A stretch of DNA of 12,847 nt from Candidatus Jordarchaeales archaeon. Its GTDB lineage: Archaea > Asgardarchaeota > Jordiarchaeia > Jordiarchaeales > Freyrarchaeaceae. Made by a program: the position numbers and the translations under genes. This document shows, piece after piece, positions 4 through 12,466 of the stretch. The notes under the pieces are model-generated. The model did no database searches, was not told the DNA's origin, and saw only the letters and a program-made list of their open reading frames with translations. The first letter of the stretch is position 1; every line of letters begins with the position of its first letter. The stretch is from the NCBI GenBank assembly GCA_038858525.1, contig JAWCFL010000025.1, forward strand, positions 13,927 to 26,773, read 5' to 3'.

Positions 4-18
4 CGACAAATTATATAT
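4..18 (+). promoter_or_regulatory. Putative BRE + TATA box for the mtd-fusion gene
   Basis: CGACAAA (4-10) directly followed by TTATATAT (11-18). SD-like GGGGTGA at 43-49 precedes ATG 56. Confidence 0.6.
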
Positions 19-55
19 TAGGCTTCGTTCTCCCATTATGTCGGGGTGATTGAAA

Positions 56-1714
56 ATGGAAGTGTTGGAGTTAAAGAAACCCGGCAGGAAACTTACAGTG
101 ATGGTGATTGAAAAGGAGTATGATGAAGTCATCAGGGAGCTCGAGGTTGCCGGGGACGGAGAGCTAGAAGTAAGAGTTCCAACACCAGCTTTCAAGGAAT
201 TTCTGAAGAAACTTGTTTCAAGTGCGAGGCCTGATTTTGCAACGGAGGAGCTGGGTGACCGTGACTCGAAAGGCAAAACAGAGCTTGCAGCAGTTTTCGA
301 GTCCCTAAAGGTTCCATTCTTCACTGTTGATATTGACGAGAACGCGAAGAACTATTTGCTCCACGAACTAGACACATTGAAAGATAAGCTAAAGGAGACG
401 CTGAAGACATTAAACGTGCTAAGAGAGAAAGGTGGGCACGAAGCAGACATAGACTACTTGACGGTTTACGCGGGCTATCTAAAGGACGAGTTGAAGGAGA
501 GTGCTGACCGCATCAAGCGAGAGGTTAGGCCAGCTTGGATAGTCAAAGGCATATTAGACGCCGCCGAGAAAGTCGCAGCCGGTAAGAAAGAGCTTATTGG
601 GATTCACGTATGCTCCCCCGTGCACCTCGACGAAGTTGTAAAGCTTTTAGAGTCACTCGGTGTTAGAGTGGAGGTAGCGTCCATGAAGAAGGAATATGTT
701 ATTGAGGAGGCTGCGGGCAGCAGCCCCGCCTCCATAAAAGTAAAGGTTAAACCTGTCGTAAAGGGAGCTGTAGGAAAATTCCCATACATACTTTTCTTCC
801 TGACAACAGACGATATCGCGAGCCCGTTCGACATATGCATGGCTTACGATGCCGGCTTCGACACGGTTAAGCCCTACGAATCCGTAACTCCCGAGAAAGC
901 GAAGGTCATAGTTCAGGACGCAATATTCTCACGCGGGACTAAAGGGGTCAAGTACACGTGCTTCTTCGTGAGTGGGAAAGACATCGACAAGGTTGAAGAT
1001 GCGGCTGAAGTCGTCAGGAAAACAATGTTCAAGCCCTTCAAGACGTCTGTTGTAGTGGATCCAAGGGGCGCCTATACTACTGCTGCAGCCATGATAGCCA
1101 AGGCGGAGGAAGGCCTTCAGAAAGCAAATCTCGGAGAGCTTACAGGGAAATCATGTGCAGTGTTCGGAACGGGTCCCGTGGGAATGATAGCTGCAGTCCT
1201 GCTGTCCAAGCTCGGCTGCGACACTGTGATAGCTGAACCATACGAGAAGCTGAGCCAAGCATACGTTGACTCTGTCGTAAACCGGCTCAAGGAGAGATAC
1301 GGAGTTAACGTCAAGGGTATTTTCGCCCCAACTAAGATCGAAAGAGCAAACATCGTGCAGAATGCCGATGTGGTCTTCACTGCTGCGGCGGCCGGCGTCA
1401 GAGTTATCGATGCGTCAATAATGGAAAAGATAAGGAAAGCCACTTTGTTCGTGGACATAAATGCTGTTCCACCGTCCGGAGTTGAGGGCGTAGAACCCAA
1501 AGACGACATGAAAGAAATAAGGCAGGGCGTTTATGGCATTGGCTCGCTGGCTGTAGGAGACCTAAAGTACAAGGTTGAAATGGAAATGTTACAGGACGCT
1601 AGGATAAGTGGCGACGGCTTCTTCGATTACAGTTACGCACTTGAAAAGGCAAGGGAGATCCTTAAAAGGAAAGTAGAGCTCGTGCCAGCGTTCACCGTGA
1701 CTGTTTCACGCTAA
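56..1714 (+). CDS. mtdB: NAD(P)-dependent methylene-tetrahydromethanopterin dehydrogenase (MtdB-like) fused to an uncharacterised ~210-aa N-terminal domain
   Basis: From nt 779 the protein has MtdB-type motifs SPFDxxMAYDAGF, QDAIFSR, DPRGAYTTAAAM, the Rossmann GTGPVG and DINAVPPSGVEG. ATG 56 is preferred over TTG 50 because of SD spacing (552 aa). Confidence 0.85.
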   Translation: MEVLELKKPGRKLTVMVIEKEYDEVIRELEVAGDGELEVRVPTPAFKEFLKKLVSSARPDFATEELGDRDSKGKTELAAVFESLKVPFFTVDIDENAKNYLLHELDTLKDKLKETLKTLNVLREKGGHEADIDYLTVYAGYLKDELKESADRIKREVRPAWIVKGILDAAEKVAAGKKELIGIHVCSPVHLDEVVKLLESLGVRVEVASMKKEYVIEEAAGSSPASIKVKVKPVVKGAVGKFPYILFFLTTDDIASPFDICMAYDAGFDTVKPYESVTPEKAKVIVQDAIFSRGTKGVKYTCFFVSGKDIDKVEDAAEVVRKTMFKPFKTSVVVDPRGAYTTAAAMIAKAEEGLQKANLGELTGKSCAVFGTGPVGMIAAVLLSKLGCDTVIAEPYEKLSQAYVDSVVNRLKERYGVNVKGIFAPTKIERANIVQNADVVFTAAAAGVRVIDASIMEKIRKATLFVDINAVPPSGVEGVEPKDDMKEIRQGVYGIGSLAVGDLKYKVEMEMLQDARISGDGFFDYSYALEKAREILKRKVELVPAFTVTVSR

Positions 1715-2718
1715 CAAAACCCTCTATCTATTACTATTTCTGCTATGTCCACAGCGTATTCTCCTATTTTTTCCATTGCTTTTTGTATAGAGCATATGGC
1801 ACATCCAACGTAAGGATCCGTTTCGTTTATAAGCCCCTCAGAAACCTTAAGCGACTTTTCCCGTATTCTGGGCCATCTCTCATCTATGATCAAGTTTGCC
1901 GTGTTTAAATCCTCTGAGAAAAACGCTTTGACGGCGTCGTCGTATATCTCCAACGATTGCCTTCCAAGGTCTACGAGCAAATTTAACACGTCGACAGCGA
2001 TCTTTTTTCCACGTCCACGTAGAAGTATGTATGTCCTAGCCACTTCCGAGGCACAGTCGGCAGTATGCTCTATCTTGTTAATCAGCGTTTGGTACTCTAG
2101 GCAATCCGCGGCGTCGACGTTCAGCTTCTCCGCAAGCAACGGGTCCTGTATTGCCTTCTTCAACACTCTCAGAAGGAAGAACGAAAAGTGATCCACGTCG
2201 TCATCAAGCGTATAAACCGCTCTAGCGGCGTCTAGAGCGTCCTCCTCCAGTGCCTTAACAGCGCTTTCACACATAGAGTATGCTACGGAATGCATGCGCC
2301 TAACGCTCATGTTTAGCGAAACCTTAGCTTCATCTAGGGCTGCCTCAAGGTACATGTGCTTAGAAGTCGACTCCATAATCCTAAGATAAAGCATTCTCGC
2401 CACTTTTCGTATACCCTTCTGCTGAGATGGAGACAAGATCCCATCGGACTTGATCACGATGCTTTTGTAACCGTTTAAGTAACAAGCTATTATTTTTCTG
2501 GAGAGCGATGCAAATTGTTCATCCTTACCAACAGTTATCTCCACATGTTTGTCCTCTTTTTCCGAGAGAGAGACAGGAGACAAAACCAATGCTCCGTCCC
2601 GCCTCACAGAAAGCGAAACAGCATCCCCCTTCTTCAACCTATGAAATTCAAGCCACTCTTTCGGCAGCGAAACAACCAATGAAGACCTGCCGAGCGAAAT
2701 TATTCTTCGAACGTCCAT
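1711..2718 (-). CDS. AbrB-domain / PhoU-domain transcriptional regulator (archaeal phosphate-uptake-regulator family)
   Basis: The N-terminus VRRIISLGRSSLVVSLPKEW...LKKGD is an AbrB fold. PhoU-like helical repeats follow (DDDVDHF...INKIEHTADCA; MEKIGEYAVDIAE). Start reassigned to ATG 2718, which has GGTGG upstream (335 aa). Confidence 0.88.
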   Translation of the reverse strand: MDVRRIISLGRSSLVVSLPKEWLEFHRLKKGDAVSLSVRRDGALVLSPVSLSEKEDKHVEITVGKDEQFASLSRKIIACYLNGYKSIVIKSDGILSPSQQKGIRKVARMLYLRIMESTSKHMYLEAALDEAKVSLNMSVRRMHSVAYSMCESAVKALEEDALDAARAVYTLDDDVDHFSFFLLRVLKKAIQDPLLAEKLNVDAADCLEYQTLINKIEHTADCASEVARTYILLRGRGKKIAVDVLNLLVDLGRQSLEIYDDAVKAFFSEDLNTANLIIDERWPRIREKSLKVSEGLINETDPYVGCAICSIQKAMEKIGEYAVDIAEIVIDRGFC

Positions 2719-2846
2719 CCAATTCCACCATGAATAATGTTGAAAAAGTATTCCTGAATATATTTTTAAAATTAAGGATATATACTTGTTTTTCATGGAG
2801 CCATTTACTTGAAGCATTAAGAAATTCAAGGTTAAGGTGTTTGGTC

Positions 2847-3278
2847 ATGCGCATCTATTTCTCCGCACCTTTATTCTGTGAGGCTGAACGTGCCTTCAAC
2901 GAAAAAGTAGCCACAAGGCTTCGTGAAGCAGGGTTCGAAGTCTGGCTTCCTCAGGAAATATCAATAGTGAAAAGTGAGTCTGAGGGAGAGAAGAAATTCA
3001 TTTACGAGTTAAACGTTTCAGCGCTTAAGAATAGCGACGTAGTTGTTGCGGTTTTGGACGGAGCTAACGTGGATAGCGGTGTCGCCTTTGAGGTCGGATA
3101 CGCTACCGCGCTGGGAAAACAAGTAATAGGCTTAAAAACTGATCATCGTGTTTTTTCTAAATTCGAGGAAGTCAACTTGATGCTTGAATTTTCTATGAAA
3201 TCTATTTGTAAGACTGTCGAAGAGCTCATTGACTTTTTAAAGGTCATTAGTAGCTCCCGCACTCAGCTTACCCATTAA
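2847..3278 (+). CDS. Nucleoside 2-deoxyribosyltransferase / nucleotide N-hydrolase family protein
   Basis: Motifs IYFSAPLF, WLPQE and DVVVAVLDG..VDSGVAFEVGYATALGK, with the catalytic Glu in FEVGY. Real start is ATG 2847 (143 aa). The upstream in-frame extension overlaps the PhoU-family gene antisense. Confidence 0.85.
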   Translation: MRIYFSAPLFCEAERAFNEKVATRLREAGFEVWLPQEISIVKSESEGEKKFIYELNVSALKNSDVVVAVLDGANVDSGVAFEVGYATALGKQVIGLKTDHRVFSKFEEVNLMLEFSMKSICKTVEELIDFLKVISSSRTQLTH

Positions 3279-7397: not shown

Positions 7398-8042
7398 ATG
7401 TATACCGCGGTTGTTAAAGTTGGAGGAAGTCTAGCTCGCTCAAAAAGAAATCTCAAGCGTCTCTGCTCTAAGCTGTCCAGTCTAGGGAAACGTTACCCAC
7501 TGCTCCTAGTTCCAGGAGGGGGACCATTCGCAGACGAGGTAAGAAAGGAGTACCGCAGGTTTAAGCTAAGCGAAGACGTTGCACACTGGATGGCTCTAAT
7601 GGCTATGAACCAGTTCGGACTTATGCTCGCTGAGCTGACAGGAATCGAAGCCAGCGAAGCTATTGGTGGCGGAAAAACCATTGTTTTTCTGCCATTCCGG
7701 CTGATCTTCGAGGATGACCCTCTCCCTCACTCTTGGGACATCACGTCCGACTCCGTTGCCGCATACATTGCTTGGAAAGCCAAGGTATCAATGGTTATTC
7801 TTCTAAAAGATGTTGATGGAGTTTTTTCTAATGACCCTAAAAGGCACGCTGATGCTAAGTTGCTTGAAAACGTGAAAGCTTTTGACCTAGCATCTCTGGG
7901 AGTTTCAACAAGCGTGGACCCCTTCTTCCCAAAACTTGTAGGAAATTACGGTATTGAAGCATGGGTTATAAATGGCAAATATCCCGAGAGGCTCGAGAAA
8001 CTTCTTTCGGAAGGAAGAACTATGGGGACGAGAATTTATTAA
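7398..8042 (+). CDS. mfnE: [5-(aminomethyl)furan-3-yl]methyl phosphate kinase (MfnE-like; amino-acid-kinase family)
   Basis: VVKVGGSL, VPGGGPFADEVR, AHWMALMAM, LPHSWDITSDSVAAYIA and KDVDG match the MfnE/Orf21 subfamily signature. mfnB is nearby. Start is ATG 7398 after GGGTGAGG (214 aa). Confidence 0.8.
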   Translation: MYTAVVKVGGSLARSKRNLKRLCSKLSSLGKRYPLLLVPGGGPFADEVRKEYRRFKLSEDVAHWMALMAMNQFGLMLAELTGIEASEAIGGGKTIVFLPFRLIFEDDPLPHSWDITSDSVAAYIAWKAKVSMVILLKDVDGVFSNDPKRHADAKLLENVKAFDLASLGVSTSVDPFFPKLVGNYGIEAWVINGKYPERLEKLLSEGRTMGTRIY

Positions 8043-8743
8043 CTACTTTTTAGTATCTCGTCAGACCTTTCTAGAATACTTTTTATTGGTGGGGCGAGCC
8101 AGAAAACGCCTGCTCTCCAGTCAACTTCGACGTAGCCTCTCAGTTCAAGCCAGTTAAACACCTTTCTCGTAGATGCTAAGTTAAACTTCATGGTGTCTGC
8201 AAACTGGCTTATCCCTCCAGCTTTCCCATCATACTTGCTTAGTACATTAAGTAGTGGGGCTACTTTTTCTATTAGCTTCGCGAGCAGTGTTCTCAGGGCG
8301 AGTGAAAGGTTTAACCCGGTTACGGTGCTGGTGCCTATCACGGGGACATCATCCGGAATATCGAAGACCTGCTTGATGACTTCTGGAGGCCGGGCCCCTT
8401 CCACATCCTGCTTGTTCGCAAGGTACACGCGTGTAGTGTCTGGGAGAAACTCGTCGACCTCTCTCCTCACGGCTTTTGCCTCCTCGTCCCGTCTTGAATC
8501 GGCACTATCTATTACGAAGAGGACGCCGTCAGCTCCCTTCGAAAGTATTTCCCTCAGAACCCTAAAATGCTTCATACCCGGCGTTCCGAAAAGATGTACT
8601 CTAAGCCCCTCAATGTCAACCCTTCCGTAATCAAGAGCCACCGTTGTTTCGTGCTTGTCAATATGTATGCTTCTCCCACCCGAAAGGAACTTTACAACAC
8701 TTGACTTGCCCGAATGGTATCCGCCAGTAACCAGCACCTTCAA
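8039..8743 (-). CDS. Small Ras-like/MglA-type GTPase with a C-terminal winged-helix-like extension
   Basis: G1 GGYHSGKSS, G2 TTVALDYG, G3 FGTPG, G4 NKQD and G5 TST. An extra ~75 aa show a three-helix plus beta-hairpin pattern. TTG start. Confidence 0.85.
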   Translation of the reverse strand: MKVLVTGGYHSGKSSVVKFLSGGRSIHIDKHETTVALDYGRVDIEGLRVHLFGTPGMKHFRVLREILSKGADGVLFVIDSADSRRDEEAKAVRREVDEFLPDTTRVYLANKQDVEGARPPEVIKQVFDIPDDVPVIGTSTVTGLNLSLALRTLLAKLIEKVAPLLNVLSKYDGKAGGISQFADTMKFNLASTRKVFNWLELRGYVEVDWRAGVFWLAPPIKSILERSDEILKSS

Positions 8744-8848: not shown

Positions 8849-9583
8849 TCACTTAAACTTCTCCCTTAATTCTGCCTCTCTGATTAGAGAGACCAGCTCC
8901 CTAACTCTCGAGCTCGTTATGCGTCCCCTCACTCTGTCCCCTCCATCGCACGCCGCCCCTCTAACCCCCACTATGTCTGCCCCCGTCTTCACGATCAACG
9001 GCAAGTCTTCCCTGCGAAGTGAGCCAGCCAAAGCAACGCTTAACCCTCTATCCTTAGCGAGCAAAACAAAGCGCCTCACCCCCTCCTCACCCCAAATGTC
9101 GACTAAGCTGAGCCCATCCTTAACAGCTGTGTCAACCATCGCAACGTCAGCCTCCGCCTCCTCAACCACTATCGGCACGAGAAAAGGGTCGATAGCACCA
9201 ACTCTTCCCGCATCAGCATACCCAGCAATAACAACCTTAACCCTCAGACTGAACTCCTTAACAGCTCTCACAACGCTCTTCGAAAGATAAACTGCATCTT
9301 CAAACTTGCTTACACCATAAAGGCCAACCTTCACATAATTAACACCACTCACCGCTGCCCCCAAAGCCGCGAGCGCAACGGTACCGGGCTTAAAGGGAAC
9401 ATCACCAACAGTTGCGCTAACCTCAACCTCCCTGGGGACGACTTCACGCACCCTCCTGATCACCCACGGAAAATTGGCGCCCAGAGACCCCTCAGCAGGG
9501 TTCTTAACGTCTATTATGTCTGCTCCTCCAGCGACAGCCTCCAAGGCCTCAAACTCGTCAACAGGACTCACTAGAAGCTTCAT
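8849..9583 (-). CDS. mfnB: (5-formylfuran-3-yl)methyl phosphate synthase (4-HFC-P synthase)
   Basis: KLLVSP, DIIDVKNPxEGSLGA, YVKVG, GYAD, MVDTAVKDG and GSL...VGVRGAAC. Counting from ATG 9583 gives D25, K27, K85 and D151, matching the catalytic residues I recall for M. jannaschii MfnB. SD GGTGG upstream. Confidence 0.95.
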   Translation of the reverse strand: MKLLVSPVDEFEALEAVAGGADIIDVKNPAEGSLGANFPWVIRRVREVVPREVEVSATVGDVPFKPGTVALAALGAAVSGVNYVKVGLYGVSKFEDAVYLSKSVVRAVKEFSLRVKVVIAGYADAGRVGAIDPFLVPIVVEEAEADVAMVDTAVKDGLSLVDIWGEEGVRRFVLLAKDRGLSVALAGSLRREDLPLIVKTGADIVGVRGAACDGGDRVRGRITSSRVRELVSLIREAELREKFK

Positions 9584-9616
9584 GGAAACCACCTAACACG
9601 AAACTACTCAAACCCC

Positions 9617-10079: not shown

Positions 10080-12440
10080 TTACTTCTTCTCTCTTACAAG
10101 TCGTGGTAGTAGTGTTGGGTCAGGTATTTCAGTGGGCTTCCAGCCTCTATCCTTCAATTCGCGCAGCAAGTCCTCTTTGAACGTGATCGGAATGTCGCCT
10201 TCAACTCTGATGAACTTGTCTATATCGTCCGGCCACTCCTTGCCCAAGTATTTCCTCGTTAAGTCGATGTAGTGGCTTAGCTTTATTTGTCGTCCCTTAG
10301 TCGTGTCGTTTGGTCTGAGGCAGAGCTTCGCGGTCAGAACTATGCATTCCTCCTTAGTCTCCGCTACCACGATAAGGTGCTCAGGCGTCGGTCCAACGTA
10401 AACCTTCTCTCCCGTTCTGGCATTGTAGACGTACCAGTCCTCGTCGACGTCGCTTCTGCCAAGATACTGCCGCCTGTACTTGGATCCATGTGGCCCAACT
10501 ATAACCGGTATGCCCCACATGTTAACTCCGGTAGCTATTGAGGCTGCCTTCTGTGAGTAGGCGCCCCAGGCAACGCCAACAGCCCCCACACGGTTGAGAA
10601 TGTAGTCCGCTATCTCCTCAAAGTTTCCTCTCAGATTTCTTCTGGCGAAAATACTTGCTATCTTTACTGCTGCTCCAACTATGTGGGAGTTTGCTACGCA
10701 AGAGCCGACGTTGACTAATCCTCCAGCATCGAAATTGCCAGGGTACTTCTCGTAAAGTGTTAAGCCTTCCTCATCCCTGTAGCGGCCAAGGTCCATAGCT
10801 GAGCATCCACTAGCGACCACAATATACCTTCTCTTCAGGAATTCCTCCGCCATCTCGACGAGGTCCTTGTGACCATTAGGATAATTCGCGCATCCGACGT
10901 AAGCTATGACGCCAGGTATCTCGCCAAGCACTATCGGTGAGCCAACATTCCTGATCTCCGTGTCCTTTATGGGGCCTCTTCCGCTTCTCATCTTGTAGCG
11001 GTCCTCCTTGATCTGCTTCTCGGCTGCTCTGACTATGAGGTCGTGCACCGGTATGCCCTGCGGGCAGACTTGACTACACCTGTTGCAAGAGACGCACGCA
11101 TCATATATGTCCGCAAGCTTGTTCAAGTCTCCATCAGCGGCAGCCTTGACGGCATATCCAGTCGGTAAGTCCTCGGGGCAAGCCCGCTGGCATGTGTGGC
11201 AGAGAGTGCATTTGGATGCAAGCTCAACGAGCTTCTTCTTGTCAGGTATAACCTTGTACTTCTTCCTTAAGGGGGCTAGCTTCATCGCCACTCTAACCGC
11301 TACTTCTCCCGCTTTTTCTGGGTCAGATATGAAGACGCCGTTTTCCGTCTGGCTGAGTGCTCCCTTAACCAAGTCCTCAACTATAGCGTCAACCGGGTCG
11401 TTTGTCCTGTCTGGCAGACCTCCAATGTTCTTGTCGGTTGTCGCTATGAACGCAGCCTTAATCTTCCTAGCCTCAAGAAGGTTATCGGTGCGTATGCACT
11501 GCTCGTCGACTACGACTACGTCAGGGGCTCCAGACCTAACATACCTTAACTGCCTGCTTATCGTCCCAACAATCTTGTATCTCGCATCATACCTCGTAAG
11601 ATCTATTGCTGTGCAGCATATACCAGCAACCTCAACTTGGTCCTCTAAGCCGTGCTCCCGCAAGTAGTCTATTATGCCGACCGCGGGTATAACGTTGTGA
11701 CCTATAACCAATATCACGGGCTTCTCTAAGTCCACCACGCCCATTCCTACCTCGACCAGAGGGGCTTCGGGGTCTCCCTTGGGGAACCCCAGCGTCGTTA
11801 TCTGGATTATGTCCGCTACTTCCATCGCTAGAAAGTCCATTAGGCCTATGTGGAGCGCCTTTGCTTCGAAGTCAAGGTAGTTGCTTTCCTGTCCGGTGTG
11901 AGTCGCAGACATGCAGTGGAGCACCTGCTCCTGGACGTAGTCGAGTACCGGGATGAAATCTCTAAGTGTTTTGGGCCTTATGCCGCACATCGTTCTCGTT
12001 ATCGGCGCCTCGACGGCAATATCATCACCCAGGTTTATCGGGTAATCTGGCCCATACCTACGGATCAGCTCGTCAAGCATGTGTCTAGCATGCCCTGCGT
12101 GGGCGGAGCAACCCATGAGGCACGCAATGAGAACGATACGTCCCTGCTGGTCACCAATGTTTATTCCGCAAGCCCCCCTCTTACCGGCGGTCAGGTCACA
12201 ATGCCCAAATGTACAAAGACAGCATTTATCGCAGAATGGAGCGTAGAAAGGCCTGTAGCGTTTTAGGATAGTGTGCGCCCAGTTTCTAGTAGTGAGTATG
12301 TTCGGGAATGGCATCGGGCCCTGAGGCTCCCATTCTTCCTCTTCCTCTATGATCTCGCCTATGTACATTTCAAGGTTCTTGAACGAAGCCATTCCTGTTT
12401 TTAACATGTCTGCCTTTATTTTTGCAGCTGGCTTTACCAT
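10080..12440 (-). CDS. cdhA: Acetyl-CoA decarbonylase/synthase complex alpha subunit (Ni,Fe-CO dehydrogenase)
   Basis: CDKCCLCTFGHC (D/B clusters), HAGHARH, C-cluster ligands GHN, GICCT, DEQC, VGCAN, SGCS and GSC, QKA lysine, and the extra 2x[4Fe-4S] domain CTLCHTCQRACP / CVSCNRCSQVCP. Start is ATG 12440 after GGAGG (786 aa). Confidence 0.97.
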   Translation of the reverse strand: MVKPAAKIKADMLKTGMASFKNLEMYIGEIIEEEEEWEPQGPMPFPNILTTRNWAHTILKRYRPFYAPFCDKCCLCTFGHCDLTAGKRGACGINIGDQQGRIVLIACLMGCSAHAGHARHMLDELIRRYGPDYPINLGDDIAVEAPITRTMCGIRPKTLRDFIPVLDYVQEQVLHCMSATHTGQESNYLDFEAKALHIGLMDFLAMEVADIIQITTLGFPKGDPEAPLVEVGMGVVDLEKPVILVIGHNVIPAVGIIDYLREHGLEDQVEVAGICCTAIDLTRYDARYKIVGTISRQLRYVRSGAPDVVVVDEQCIRTDNLLEARKIKAAFIATTDKNIGGLPDRTNDPVDAIVEDLVKGALSQTENGVFISDPEKAGEVAVRVAMKLAPLRKKYKVIPDKKKLVELASKCTLCHTCQRACPEDLPTGYAVKAAADGDLNKLADIYDACVSCNRCSQVCPQGIPVHDLIVRAAEKQIKEDRYKMRSGRGPIKDTEIRNVGSPIVLGEIPGVIAYVGCANYPNGHKDLVEMAEEFLKRRYIVVASGCSAMDLGRYRDEEGLTLYEKYPGNFDAGGLVNVGSCVANSHIVGAAVKIASIFARRNLRGNFEEIADYILNRVGAVGVAWGAYSQKAASIATGVNMWGIPVIVGPHGSKYRRQYLGRSDVDEDWYVYNARTGEKVYVGPTPEHLIVVAETKEECIVLTAKLCLRPNDTTKGRQIKLSHYIDLTRKYLGKEWPDDIDKFIRVEGDIPITFKEDLLRELKDRGWKPTEIPDPTLLPRLVREKK

Positions 12441-12466
12441 TTTAGCCCTCCACAAGCATTATCATG

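Follow-up and report, generated by a model that had tools for sequence, protein, structure and literature searches.

The characterised MtdA and MtdB enzymes of Methylorubrum extorquens, which are methylene-tetrahydromethanopterin (H4MPT) dehydrogenases (Mtd), are single-module proteins, with chains of 287–303 amino acids (aa) in the PDB and no N-terminal extension, much as a first-pass annotation of the DNA treated here had stated (~290–300 aa, no additional domain). In Bathyarchaeia, Mtd was noted to be similar to the methylotroph enzyme of the NADH type (Loh et al. 2021, PMC7886697). A second, very different group of proteins also bears on the present locus: in the TIKI/TraB superfamily the hydrolases possess a 2His/2Glu set of residues with an essential His-Glu pair (E-x-H or GTxH after strand 1, Glu after strand 2 and GxxH after strand 4), some of these hydrolases depend on a metal and others do not, another member, ChaN, binds haem, and the members PMT C1/C2, which are without the 2His/2Glu set, are inactive (PMC6254334). 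Here we describe a gene at one end of a 12,847-nt stretch of a Candidatus Jordarchaeales archaeon contig (the whole stretch is referred to as the window, and coordinates are relative to it unless another locus is named), in which an Mtd of the MtdA/MtdB type is joined to an N-terminal domain (N-domain) that is likely to be a distant and degenerate relative of the second group.

The gene lies in a single open frame at 50..1714 (+), where an ATG at 56 opens the coding sequence of a 552-aa protein, P0001 (56..1714, +, stop codon included, from the open reading frame list and its translation), in agreement with the first-pass annotation; this ATG is favoured over a TTG at 50 because homologues begin MEVLEL or MKTLEI. 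The dehydrogenase domain (aa 243–540; 782..1675, +) was recognised by the Pfam model Mpt_N (PF09176) at aa 257–336, with 94.4 bits against a cut-off of 27 (E 4.6e-27), and by the solved MtdA structures 6tlk, 6tge and 1lu9, which align from aa 245 to ~537 with E ~1e-39 over MtdA residues 5–289. As this alignment opens at MtdA residue 5, the enzyme begins at approximately aa 242–245 (nt ~779–788), and the MtdB-like start previously placed at nt 779 is thereby borne out. Its dinucleotide-binding motif GTGPVG (aa 371–376; 1166..1183, +) aligns with the GTGPVG of MtdA, and all of 39 homologues share G371, T372, G373, V375 and G376 (counts out of 39 refer throughout to fused homologues, counts out of 66 to the alignment of the whole N-domain family). 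The N-domain itself (aa 1–218; 56..709, +), defined from an AlphaFold model and from fold and profile links, has no match in Pfam, NCBIfam or PDB sequences, and HMMER searches with its single sequence and with profiles of 39 and 66 sequences returned chance-level rows only (ScaR, annexin, glutaredoxin and others).

P0001 has more than 1,400 homologues, the best 120 of which are 550–618 aa long with coverage of 96–100%, bar one 321-aa fragment of P0001 itself. Among the homologues of the fused protein that carry an organism name, the nearest (identity of 52% or less) are assigned to Bathyarchaeota or Bathyarchaeia, and the NCBI names for homologues are either Mtd or “Mtd N-terminal domain-containing”. 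The fused frame is also present in all three of the other genomes of the genus, so that the fusion, whose conservation the first-pass annotation had proposed to check, is not restricted to one assembly. An exhaustive profile search of 1.84 billion representatives (clustered at 50% identity) recovered only 122 N-domain proteins, comprising N-terminal fusions of ~560 aa, a reverse fusion, stand-alone proteins of 200–250 aa and fragments. No characterised family, whether associated with Mtd or not, was matched by the N-domain.

The arrangement of the two modules is shuffled between genomes. In the reverse-order fusion, a 496-aa protein (P0146, locus L020), Mtd is followed by the N-domain. Stand-alone N-domain genes, which had been sought beside mtd as a check on the fusion, were found directly upstream of it: in locus L004 three tandem N-domain genes (213, 205 and 243 aa) precede a 332-aa Mtd, in L025, L027, L028 and L029 a stand-alone N-domain of ~215–230 aa precedes a fused gene, a stand-alone-plus-fused tandem that also occurs in L007, and in L026 and L028 an N-domain of ~210 aa is followed by one of ~243 aa and then by a split Mtd. 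Among 301 genomes of the window’s phylum, 86 encode the N-domain, 90 encode Mpt_N and 83 encode both; as these genomes are related to one another the counts are descriptive and carry no statistical test. Seven genomes with Mtd only (G027, G028, G047, G062, G111, G116 and G158) possess short MtdA/B-type enzymes of 300–320 aa and no N-domain anywhere, and represent natural controls for the contribution of the N-domain. In some of them (G116, G158) three short MtdA/B-type genes stand in tandem.

Fusion in both orders, together with fission in which the genes stay adjacent, is a classical signature of physically interacting modules, and the N-domain and Mtd bear this signature, being fused in both orders and also split but adjacent. 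Since the N-domain is almost never found without the enzyme, it probably serves as a dedicated subunit for assembly or docking, and on balance we lean towards the reading that it is a non-hydrolytic accessory module which builds or docks the Mtd holoenzyme.

The N-domain was modelled confidently by AlphaFold2 from an alignment of 39 sequences (predicted local distance difference test, pLDDT, 91.5; predicted template modelling score, pTM, 0.87), so the ~210 aa of alpha/beta structure and long helices previously described ahead of the enzyme correspond to a confident fold over aa 1–218. Its elements follow the order beta-alpha-beta-alpha-beta, a long helical hairpin, then beta-alpha-beta: the first half consists of strand 12–19, helix 44–57, strand 61–65, helix 76–83 and strand 88–91, the second of the helical hairpin 95–124/129–173, strand 179–186, helix 188–200 and strand 204–208. 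The connector (aa 204–236; 665..763, +) had been taken for a low-complexity linker. That description holds in part; the full-length AlphaFold2 model gives a long beta hairpin there, with strands 204–218 and 224–236 and a pLDDT of ~83 dropping to 61, and the second strand is kept in homologues. Where the N-domain and Mtd are encoded separately, the division between the genes comes between these two hairpin strands. The same model places an extra C-terminal strand past the end of MtdA (aa 546–551; 1691..1708, +), which retains an (L/V)T(L/V) pattern in homologues and may pair with the connector hairpin.

With two copies of the N-domain, complex prediction gave a score of 0.42, whereas the highest of three controls was 0.15. 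The 0.42 mark was reached by 20 of 30 proteins solved as one-chain pairs and by one of 23 solved as single chains, counts that hold only roughly as our own alignment was used. The prediction runs agreed in at least 97% of contacts, with a partner pLDDT of at least 83, and placed residues 109–146 of the helical hairpin against the loop 31–44 of the other copy in a symmetric interface. This supports, but does not show, self-association of the N-domain, and where a genome has paralogues the corresponding contact would be a heteromeric one.

In the mechanism we propose, the N-domain family would be a very divergent offshoot of the TraB/Tiki/ChaN/EreA fold that has lost the canonical 2His/2Glu hydrolase site and serves as a companion to archaeal NAD(P)-type Mtd, whether fused to it at one or the other terminus or supplied by one to three genes beside it. 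The long helical hairpin may mediate pairing of the N-domain with itself, or with paralogues in other genomes, the beta-hairpin connector would tie it to the catalytic domain, and the N-domain could thus build or dock the Mtd holoenzyme, with regulation as another possible role. A retained polar pocket (E21, E65, D92, R158, W161, H184) may bind a small ligand or metal.

The state of the superfamily’s active site in the N-domain was followed motif by motif. After strand 1, at the place of GTxH, the N-domain has EKEY (aa 19–22; 110..121, +, from the sequence and the homologue alignment), with E19 in 38/39, K20 in 39/39, E21 in 39/39 and Y22 in 38/39 fused homologues; a His at this place is not conserved in any N-domain subfamily among the 66 members, whilst genuine archaeal TraB shows LIGTIH there, so the missing GTxH remarked on previously is real. 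The end of strand 2 carries PDFATEELG (aa 59–67; 230..256, +), which aligns with PEIVAVELD of archaeal TraB; its E65 is equivalent to the conserved Glu of the superfamily, and position 65 is acidic in 65/66 (E in 32, D in 33). The long helical hairpin (aa 95–124 and 129–173; 338..574, +), the predicted dimer contact, bears R158 and W161. Position 158 is basic in 60/66 (R in 48, K in 12), W161 is found in 57/66 and D92 in 46/66, and R158, aligned with the Arg of ERDVYIA in archaeal TraB, corresponds to the conserved Arg that superfamily members have on the helix before strand 4. Finally HVCSPVH (aa 184–190; 605..625, +), at the end of strand 4, aligns with VIGLGH and corresponds to the region of the GxxH motif: among the fused proteins H184 is present in 38/39, S187 and P188 in 39/39 each and H190 in 34/39, whilst family-wide H184 is kept in 47/66 and H190, which aligns with the His of GxxH, in 21/66. 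Not one alignment column is the same in all 66 members of the family. The 2His/2Glu catalytic motif of the superfamily is absent from the N-domain, the canonical site being incomplete because the first His is replaced in EKEY, and canonical hydrolysis is unlikely given no conserved His at the first motif, a GxxH His that is only partly kept and the lack of any invariant column.

The same alignments hold points that weigh against a purely accessory module. Sixteen positions are invariant in the fused subfamily, among them K20, E21, T63, E65, R158, W161, S187 and P188, despite an N-domain identity of 36–54% between fused homologues, and several of the invariant positions fall at TraB/Tiki active-site motifs, as placed by the TraB motif alignment. 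A conserved polar pocket thus appears to persist in the N-domain family and to be strictly conserved in the fused subfamily, and such conservation, as read from sequence, is to be expected of a ligand-binding or catalytic pocket no less than of a pure scaffold. Furthermore, the full-length model of P0001 (pLDDT 88) has a pTM of only 0.59 and so does not fix the mutual arrangement of the N-domain and Mtd.

The conserved positions are the ground for a different explanation, in which the N-domain keeps a working pocket and is either a second catalytic domain, such as a hydrolase or esterase acting on an intermediate or cofactor of the C1 pathway, or a sensor of a metal or small molecule through which Mtd is regulated, in either case with a site formed from E19/E21, E65, D92, R158 and H184 and not from the canonical 2His/2Glu set. 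Besides the strict conservation just given, the acidic residue at 65, the basic residue at 158, Trp 161 and His 184 recur family-wide at the TraB/Tiki active-site region by motif alignment, in a superfamily that has both kinds of hydrolase and a haem binder (PMC6254334). However, the His of the essential His-Glu pair is gone in every subfamily, all columns vary somewhere among the 66 members, positions 20, 22, 187 and 188 vary freely in stand-alone paralogues, the presence of the methenyl-H4MPT cyclohydrolase Mch leaves no pathway step obviously without an enzyme, and two or three paralogues for each Mtd suit subunits better than enzymes. We consider a working pocket possible, though rather improbable, and the accessory module that builds or docks the holoenzyme is retained as the preferred reading.

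The ancestry of the N-domain was approached through structure, profiles, motif register and language-model neighbours. Foldseek against the PDB gave nothing at E ≤ 1e-3, the weak rows including Bcr135 (3b55, 2rad) and EreC (6XCQ) at E 0.03–0.1. A wide structure search with VIA was dominated by two-helix hairpin matches to residues 94–163, and the VIA Z-scores were 8.5 for ChaN, 8.5 for SUMT, 8.1 for CbiL and 7.7 for Ffh; the structural alignments with ChaN and TraB span the whole N-domain (144–145 residues), those with other folds 100–115 residues. In the ESM Atlas the top rows were the N-domain family’s own clusters, followed by an unnamed cluster of 184-aa bacterial proteins (template modelling score, TM, 0.55/0.64), and the best named families were TraB_PrgY_gumN (TM 0.53/0.50) and DUF5694 (0.53), with the next named family at 0.39. 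The language-model neighbours include TraB/GumN (0.81), which at such a score is only a lead, and DUF5694. The 66-member family profile was also compared with a profile of nine genuine TraB proteins from related genomes, giving 166 collinear columns with a score of 26.6 (P 0.004, hhalign probability 8%), compared to a maximum of 20.1 for 30 block-shuffled TraB profiles, 15.7 for a reversed profile and 17.4 for the unrelated Rossmann domain of Mtd. Four motifs are superposed in this alignment (N-domain on TraB: PDFATEEL on PEIVAVEL, VDI on FVD, VRPAWIV on ERDVYIA and HVCSPVH on VIGLGH). The motifs that the first-pass annotation had quoted are all present in the order it stated, the profile alignment runs in the very register it had proposed for the TraB pattern, and its hint of a TraB/Tiki/ChaN-like fold now has four weak but convergent lines behind it. 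The superfamily hidden Markov models (PF01963, PF04187, PF05139) had no match, even at E ≤ 10, in any of the 66 family members.

It may be argued from the same data that the resemblance is that of a generic three-layer alpha/beta fold and that the N-domain is an unrelated, lineage-specific invention, a question of ancestry and not of function: Foldseek is silent at E ≤ 1e-3, SUMT equals ChaN in VIA Z with CbiL and Ffh close behind, HMMER matches no superfamily model and the hhalign probability is low. We regard this as unlikely, as four different methods converge on one superfamily, the ChaN and TraB alignments span the whole domain where those with other folds do not, and the profile alignment is collinear over four motifs and above every control. 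The aligned length is also similar to that over which accepted superfamily members superpose, 140–146 C-alpha atoms (PMC6254334). Each line is weak and homology is not proven, but distant descent of the N-domain from the TIKI/TraB superfamily is likely.

The gene neighbourhoods of N-domain and Mtd fall into different sets. In the window a 372-aa protein with a MazE/AbrB-type DNA-binding domain and PhoU domains is encoded convergently with mtd (1711-2829, −). Since a homologous gene adjoins mtd in the same-genus locus L030 (78% identity) as well as in L007 and L020, its position beside mtd is conserved, and it may regulate the C1 gene. Overlapping the 5′ end of the PhoU gene by ~320 nt is an open reading frame with similarity to nucleoside 2-deoxyribosyltransferase/TIR_2 (2508-3278, +), whose true start is probably further downstream, since the Pfam domain opens at aa 116. 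In many Asgard genomes an HdrA-MvhD-like gene of ~850 aa divergently adjoins the N-domain/Mtd cluster (L004 1765-4314, −; L025 2279-4822, −; L026 626-3193, −; L028 11412-12998, +; L029 4519-7047, +), these genes sharing 57–70% mutual identity, and beyond the HdrA-like gene of L004 are an FrhB-like gene and genes for the small and large subunits of a [NiFe]-hydrogenase. Downstream of the reverse fusion in L020 (5894-8731, +) we observed a 183-aa N-domain paralogue and an NfnAB-like pair (DHODB_Fe-S_bind; Fer4_20/Pyr_redox_2), which suggests a local supply of NADPH. Six or more HdrA homologues are encoded in the source genome (G000), all of them away from mtd, and two of these (G000:C1:82282-84210 and G000:C4:86591-88525) contain in-frame TGA codons, one also a TAG; these could reflect selenocysteine or broken genes.

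The methenyl/methylene-H4MPT couple lies at approximately −390 mV, below NAD(P)H at −320 mV, so that the reductive direction is unfavourable with NAD(P)H alone. Together with the divergent HdrA-MvhD-like genes, the FrhB-like and hydrogenase genes of L004 and the NfnAB-like genes of L020, this can be counted for an explanation in which the N-domain, like its paralogues, acts as an adaptor for docking of Mtd on an HdrA-type flavoprotein/[NiFe]-hydrogenase module, coupling methenyl-H4MPT reduction to low-potential or bifurcated electrons. However, the conserved neighbour in the window, L030, L007 and L020 is the PhoU/MazE gene and not HdrA, all HdrA homologues of the source genome are away from mtd, and gene neighbourhood may merely reflect the supply of reductant; we therefore find such an adaptor role doubtful. 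Equally improbable, in our estimate, is its wider form, in which the N-domain family constitutes the structural subunits of an unrecognised multi-subunit Mtd of Asgard archaea and Bathyarchaeia that docks to an HdrA-MvhD-type flavoprotein/hydrogenase module; were it true, these archaea, which lack an F420-type Mtd, could drive methenyl-H4MPT reduction by low-potential or bifurcated electrons and not by NAD(P)H alone. Finally, the view that the fusion arose as an error of assembly or annotation (through loss of a stop codon or a chimeric contig) is excluded by the exact P0001 protein on 17 contigs, homologues of equal length at 83–87% identity, the genus-wide fused frame and the absence of internal stops, with nothing found in its favour.

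Returning to the enzyme that the proposed accessory module would serve, the sole Mpt_N copy and the sole N-domain copy of the source genome are both in the gene of P0001. No F420-type Mtd was found in this genome (92.7% complete), a complete Mch gene (418 bits) is present on another of its contigs (C36), and no further N-domain paralogue occurs in the genome or upstream of the gene, where the genes are unrelated (UbiA prenyltransferase, adenine deaminase and others). Also encoded in the window are MfnB (4-HFC-P synthase of methanofuran biosynthesis; 8849-9592, −) and a 791-aa CO dehydrogenase subunit of the CdhA type, into which a 4Fe-4S dicluster domain is inserted (10080-12455, −), further Wood-Ljungdahl context on the same contig. 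With a single Mpt_N copy, no F420-type Mtd, and Mch, MfnB and CdhA encoded, P0001 is placed as the dehydrogenase of an archaeal H4MPT Wood-Ljungdahl setting, and the context fits catalysis of methylene-H4MPT oxidation with NAD(P)+. The idea that the N-domain stands in for the methenyl-H4MPT cyclohydrolase, making a FolD-like bifunctional enzyme, was ruled out, as Mch is encoded elsewhere in the genome and no substitute is needed.

Rossmann strand 2 of the dehydrogenase differs between lineages. In the clade of P0001 it ends in Glu394 (VIAEPY, aa 390–395; window 1223-1240), whilst most bathyarchaeal homologues have Ser in its place, followed by an Arg-/Lys-rich loop (IIASLNPKR). Going by the customary rule, Glu394 hints at a preference for NAD over NADP in P0001’s lineage. 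Upstream of the gene, direct reading of the sequence located a Shine-Dalgarno-like GGGGTGA (43..49, +), 6 nt before the ATG at 56, and a TATA-like A/T-rich box, TTATATATTA (11..20, +), ~36–45 nt before it, which may be an archaeal promoter element; scans of the window for tRNAs, Rfam families, promoters and terminators gave nothing relevant. A 234-aa Arf/Ras-like small GTPase is also encoded in the window (8039-8743, −), which fits the Asgard affiliation.

Current thinking on anaerobic carbon cycling, and on how the archaeal ancestor of eukaryotes made its living, centres on Asgard archaea and Bathyarchaeia, whose Wood-Ljungdahl pathway has been rebuilt from gene lists in which this protein is labelled plainly as Mtd. 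As Mtd in these lineages almost always carries or adjoins one to three TraB-like modules, and an HdrA-like gene stands beside it in one group of loci, the real enzyme is probably an assembly of greater size than the 30-kDa bacterial MtdA/B, which bears on the electron carrier it uses and on the direction of the pathway. The N-domain represents a new domain family not yet modelled by databases and would add to the instances in which a hydrolase fold has taken on the role of a non-catalytic subunit. In a limited body of papers on MtdB, Bathyarchaeia, Asgard archaea and TraB/Tiki we found no published description of the N-terminal extension or fusion, in line with the first-pass annotation, which knew of none.

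The preferred reading may be set against the known systems as follows. ChaN, the haem-binding protein of Campylobacter jejuni (2G5G), shares 6% sequence identity with the N-domain and is a secreted lipoprotein, whereas the N-domain is a module of a cytoplasmic enzyme in which nothing suggests haem binding. Erythromycin esterase-type enzymes (EreC, 6XCQ; Bcr135, 3B55/2RAD) have the conserved Glu after strand 2 in common with the N-domain, but are proteins of twice the size and possess the essential His-Glu catalytic pair which it lacks. The likeness to TraB/PrgY/GumN (PF01963) extends through the domain: strand 1, a helix, P-D/E-x-V/A-x-x-E-L on strand 2 and VD on strand 3, followed by the helical insertion, the Arg-containing helix, strand 4 with its motif and a helix. 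The N-domain differs from this family in having EKEY in the position of GTxH and a GxxH His that is kept only partly, in the 20-residue loop after strand 1 and the much longer helical hairpin, and in its dedication to one partner enzyme. To MtdA and MtdB of Methylorubrum extorquens (1LU9, 6TLK, 6TGE) P0001 is alike in its GTGPVG, DPxGxxTTAAA and D(I/Y)NAxPPxG segments, and compared with these single-module enzymes it carries a further 218 N-terminal residues, a hairpin connector of ~30 residues and one additional C-terminal strand.

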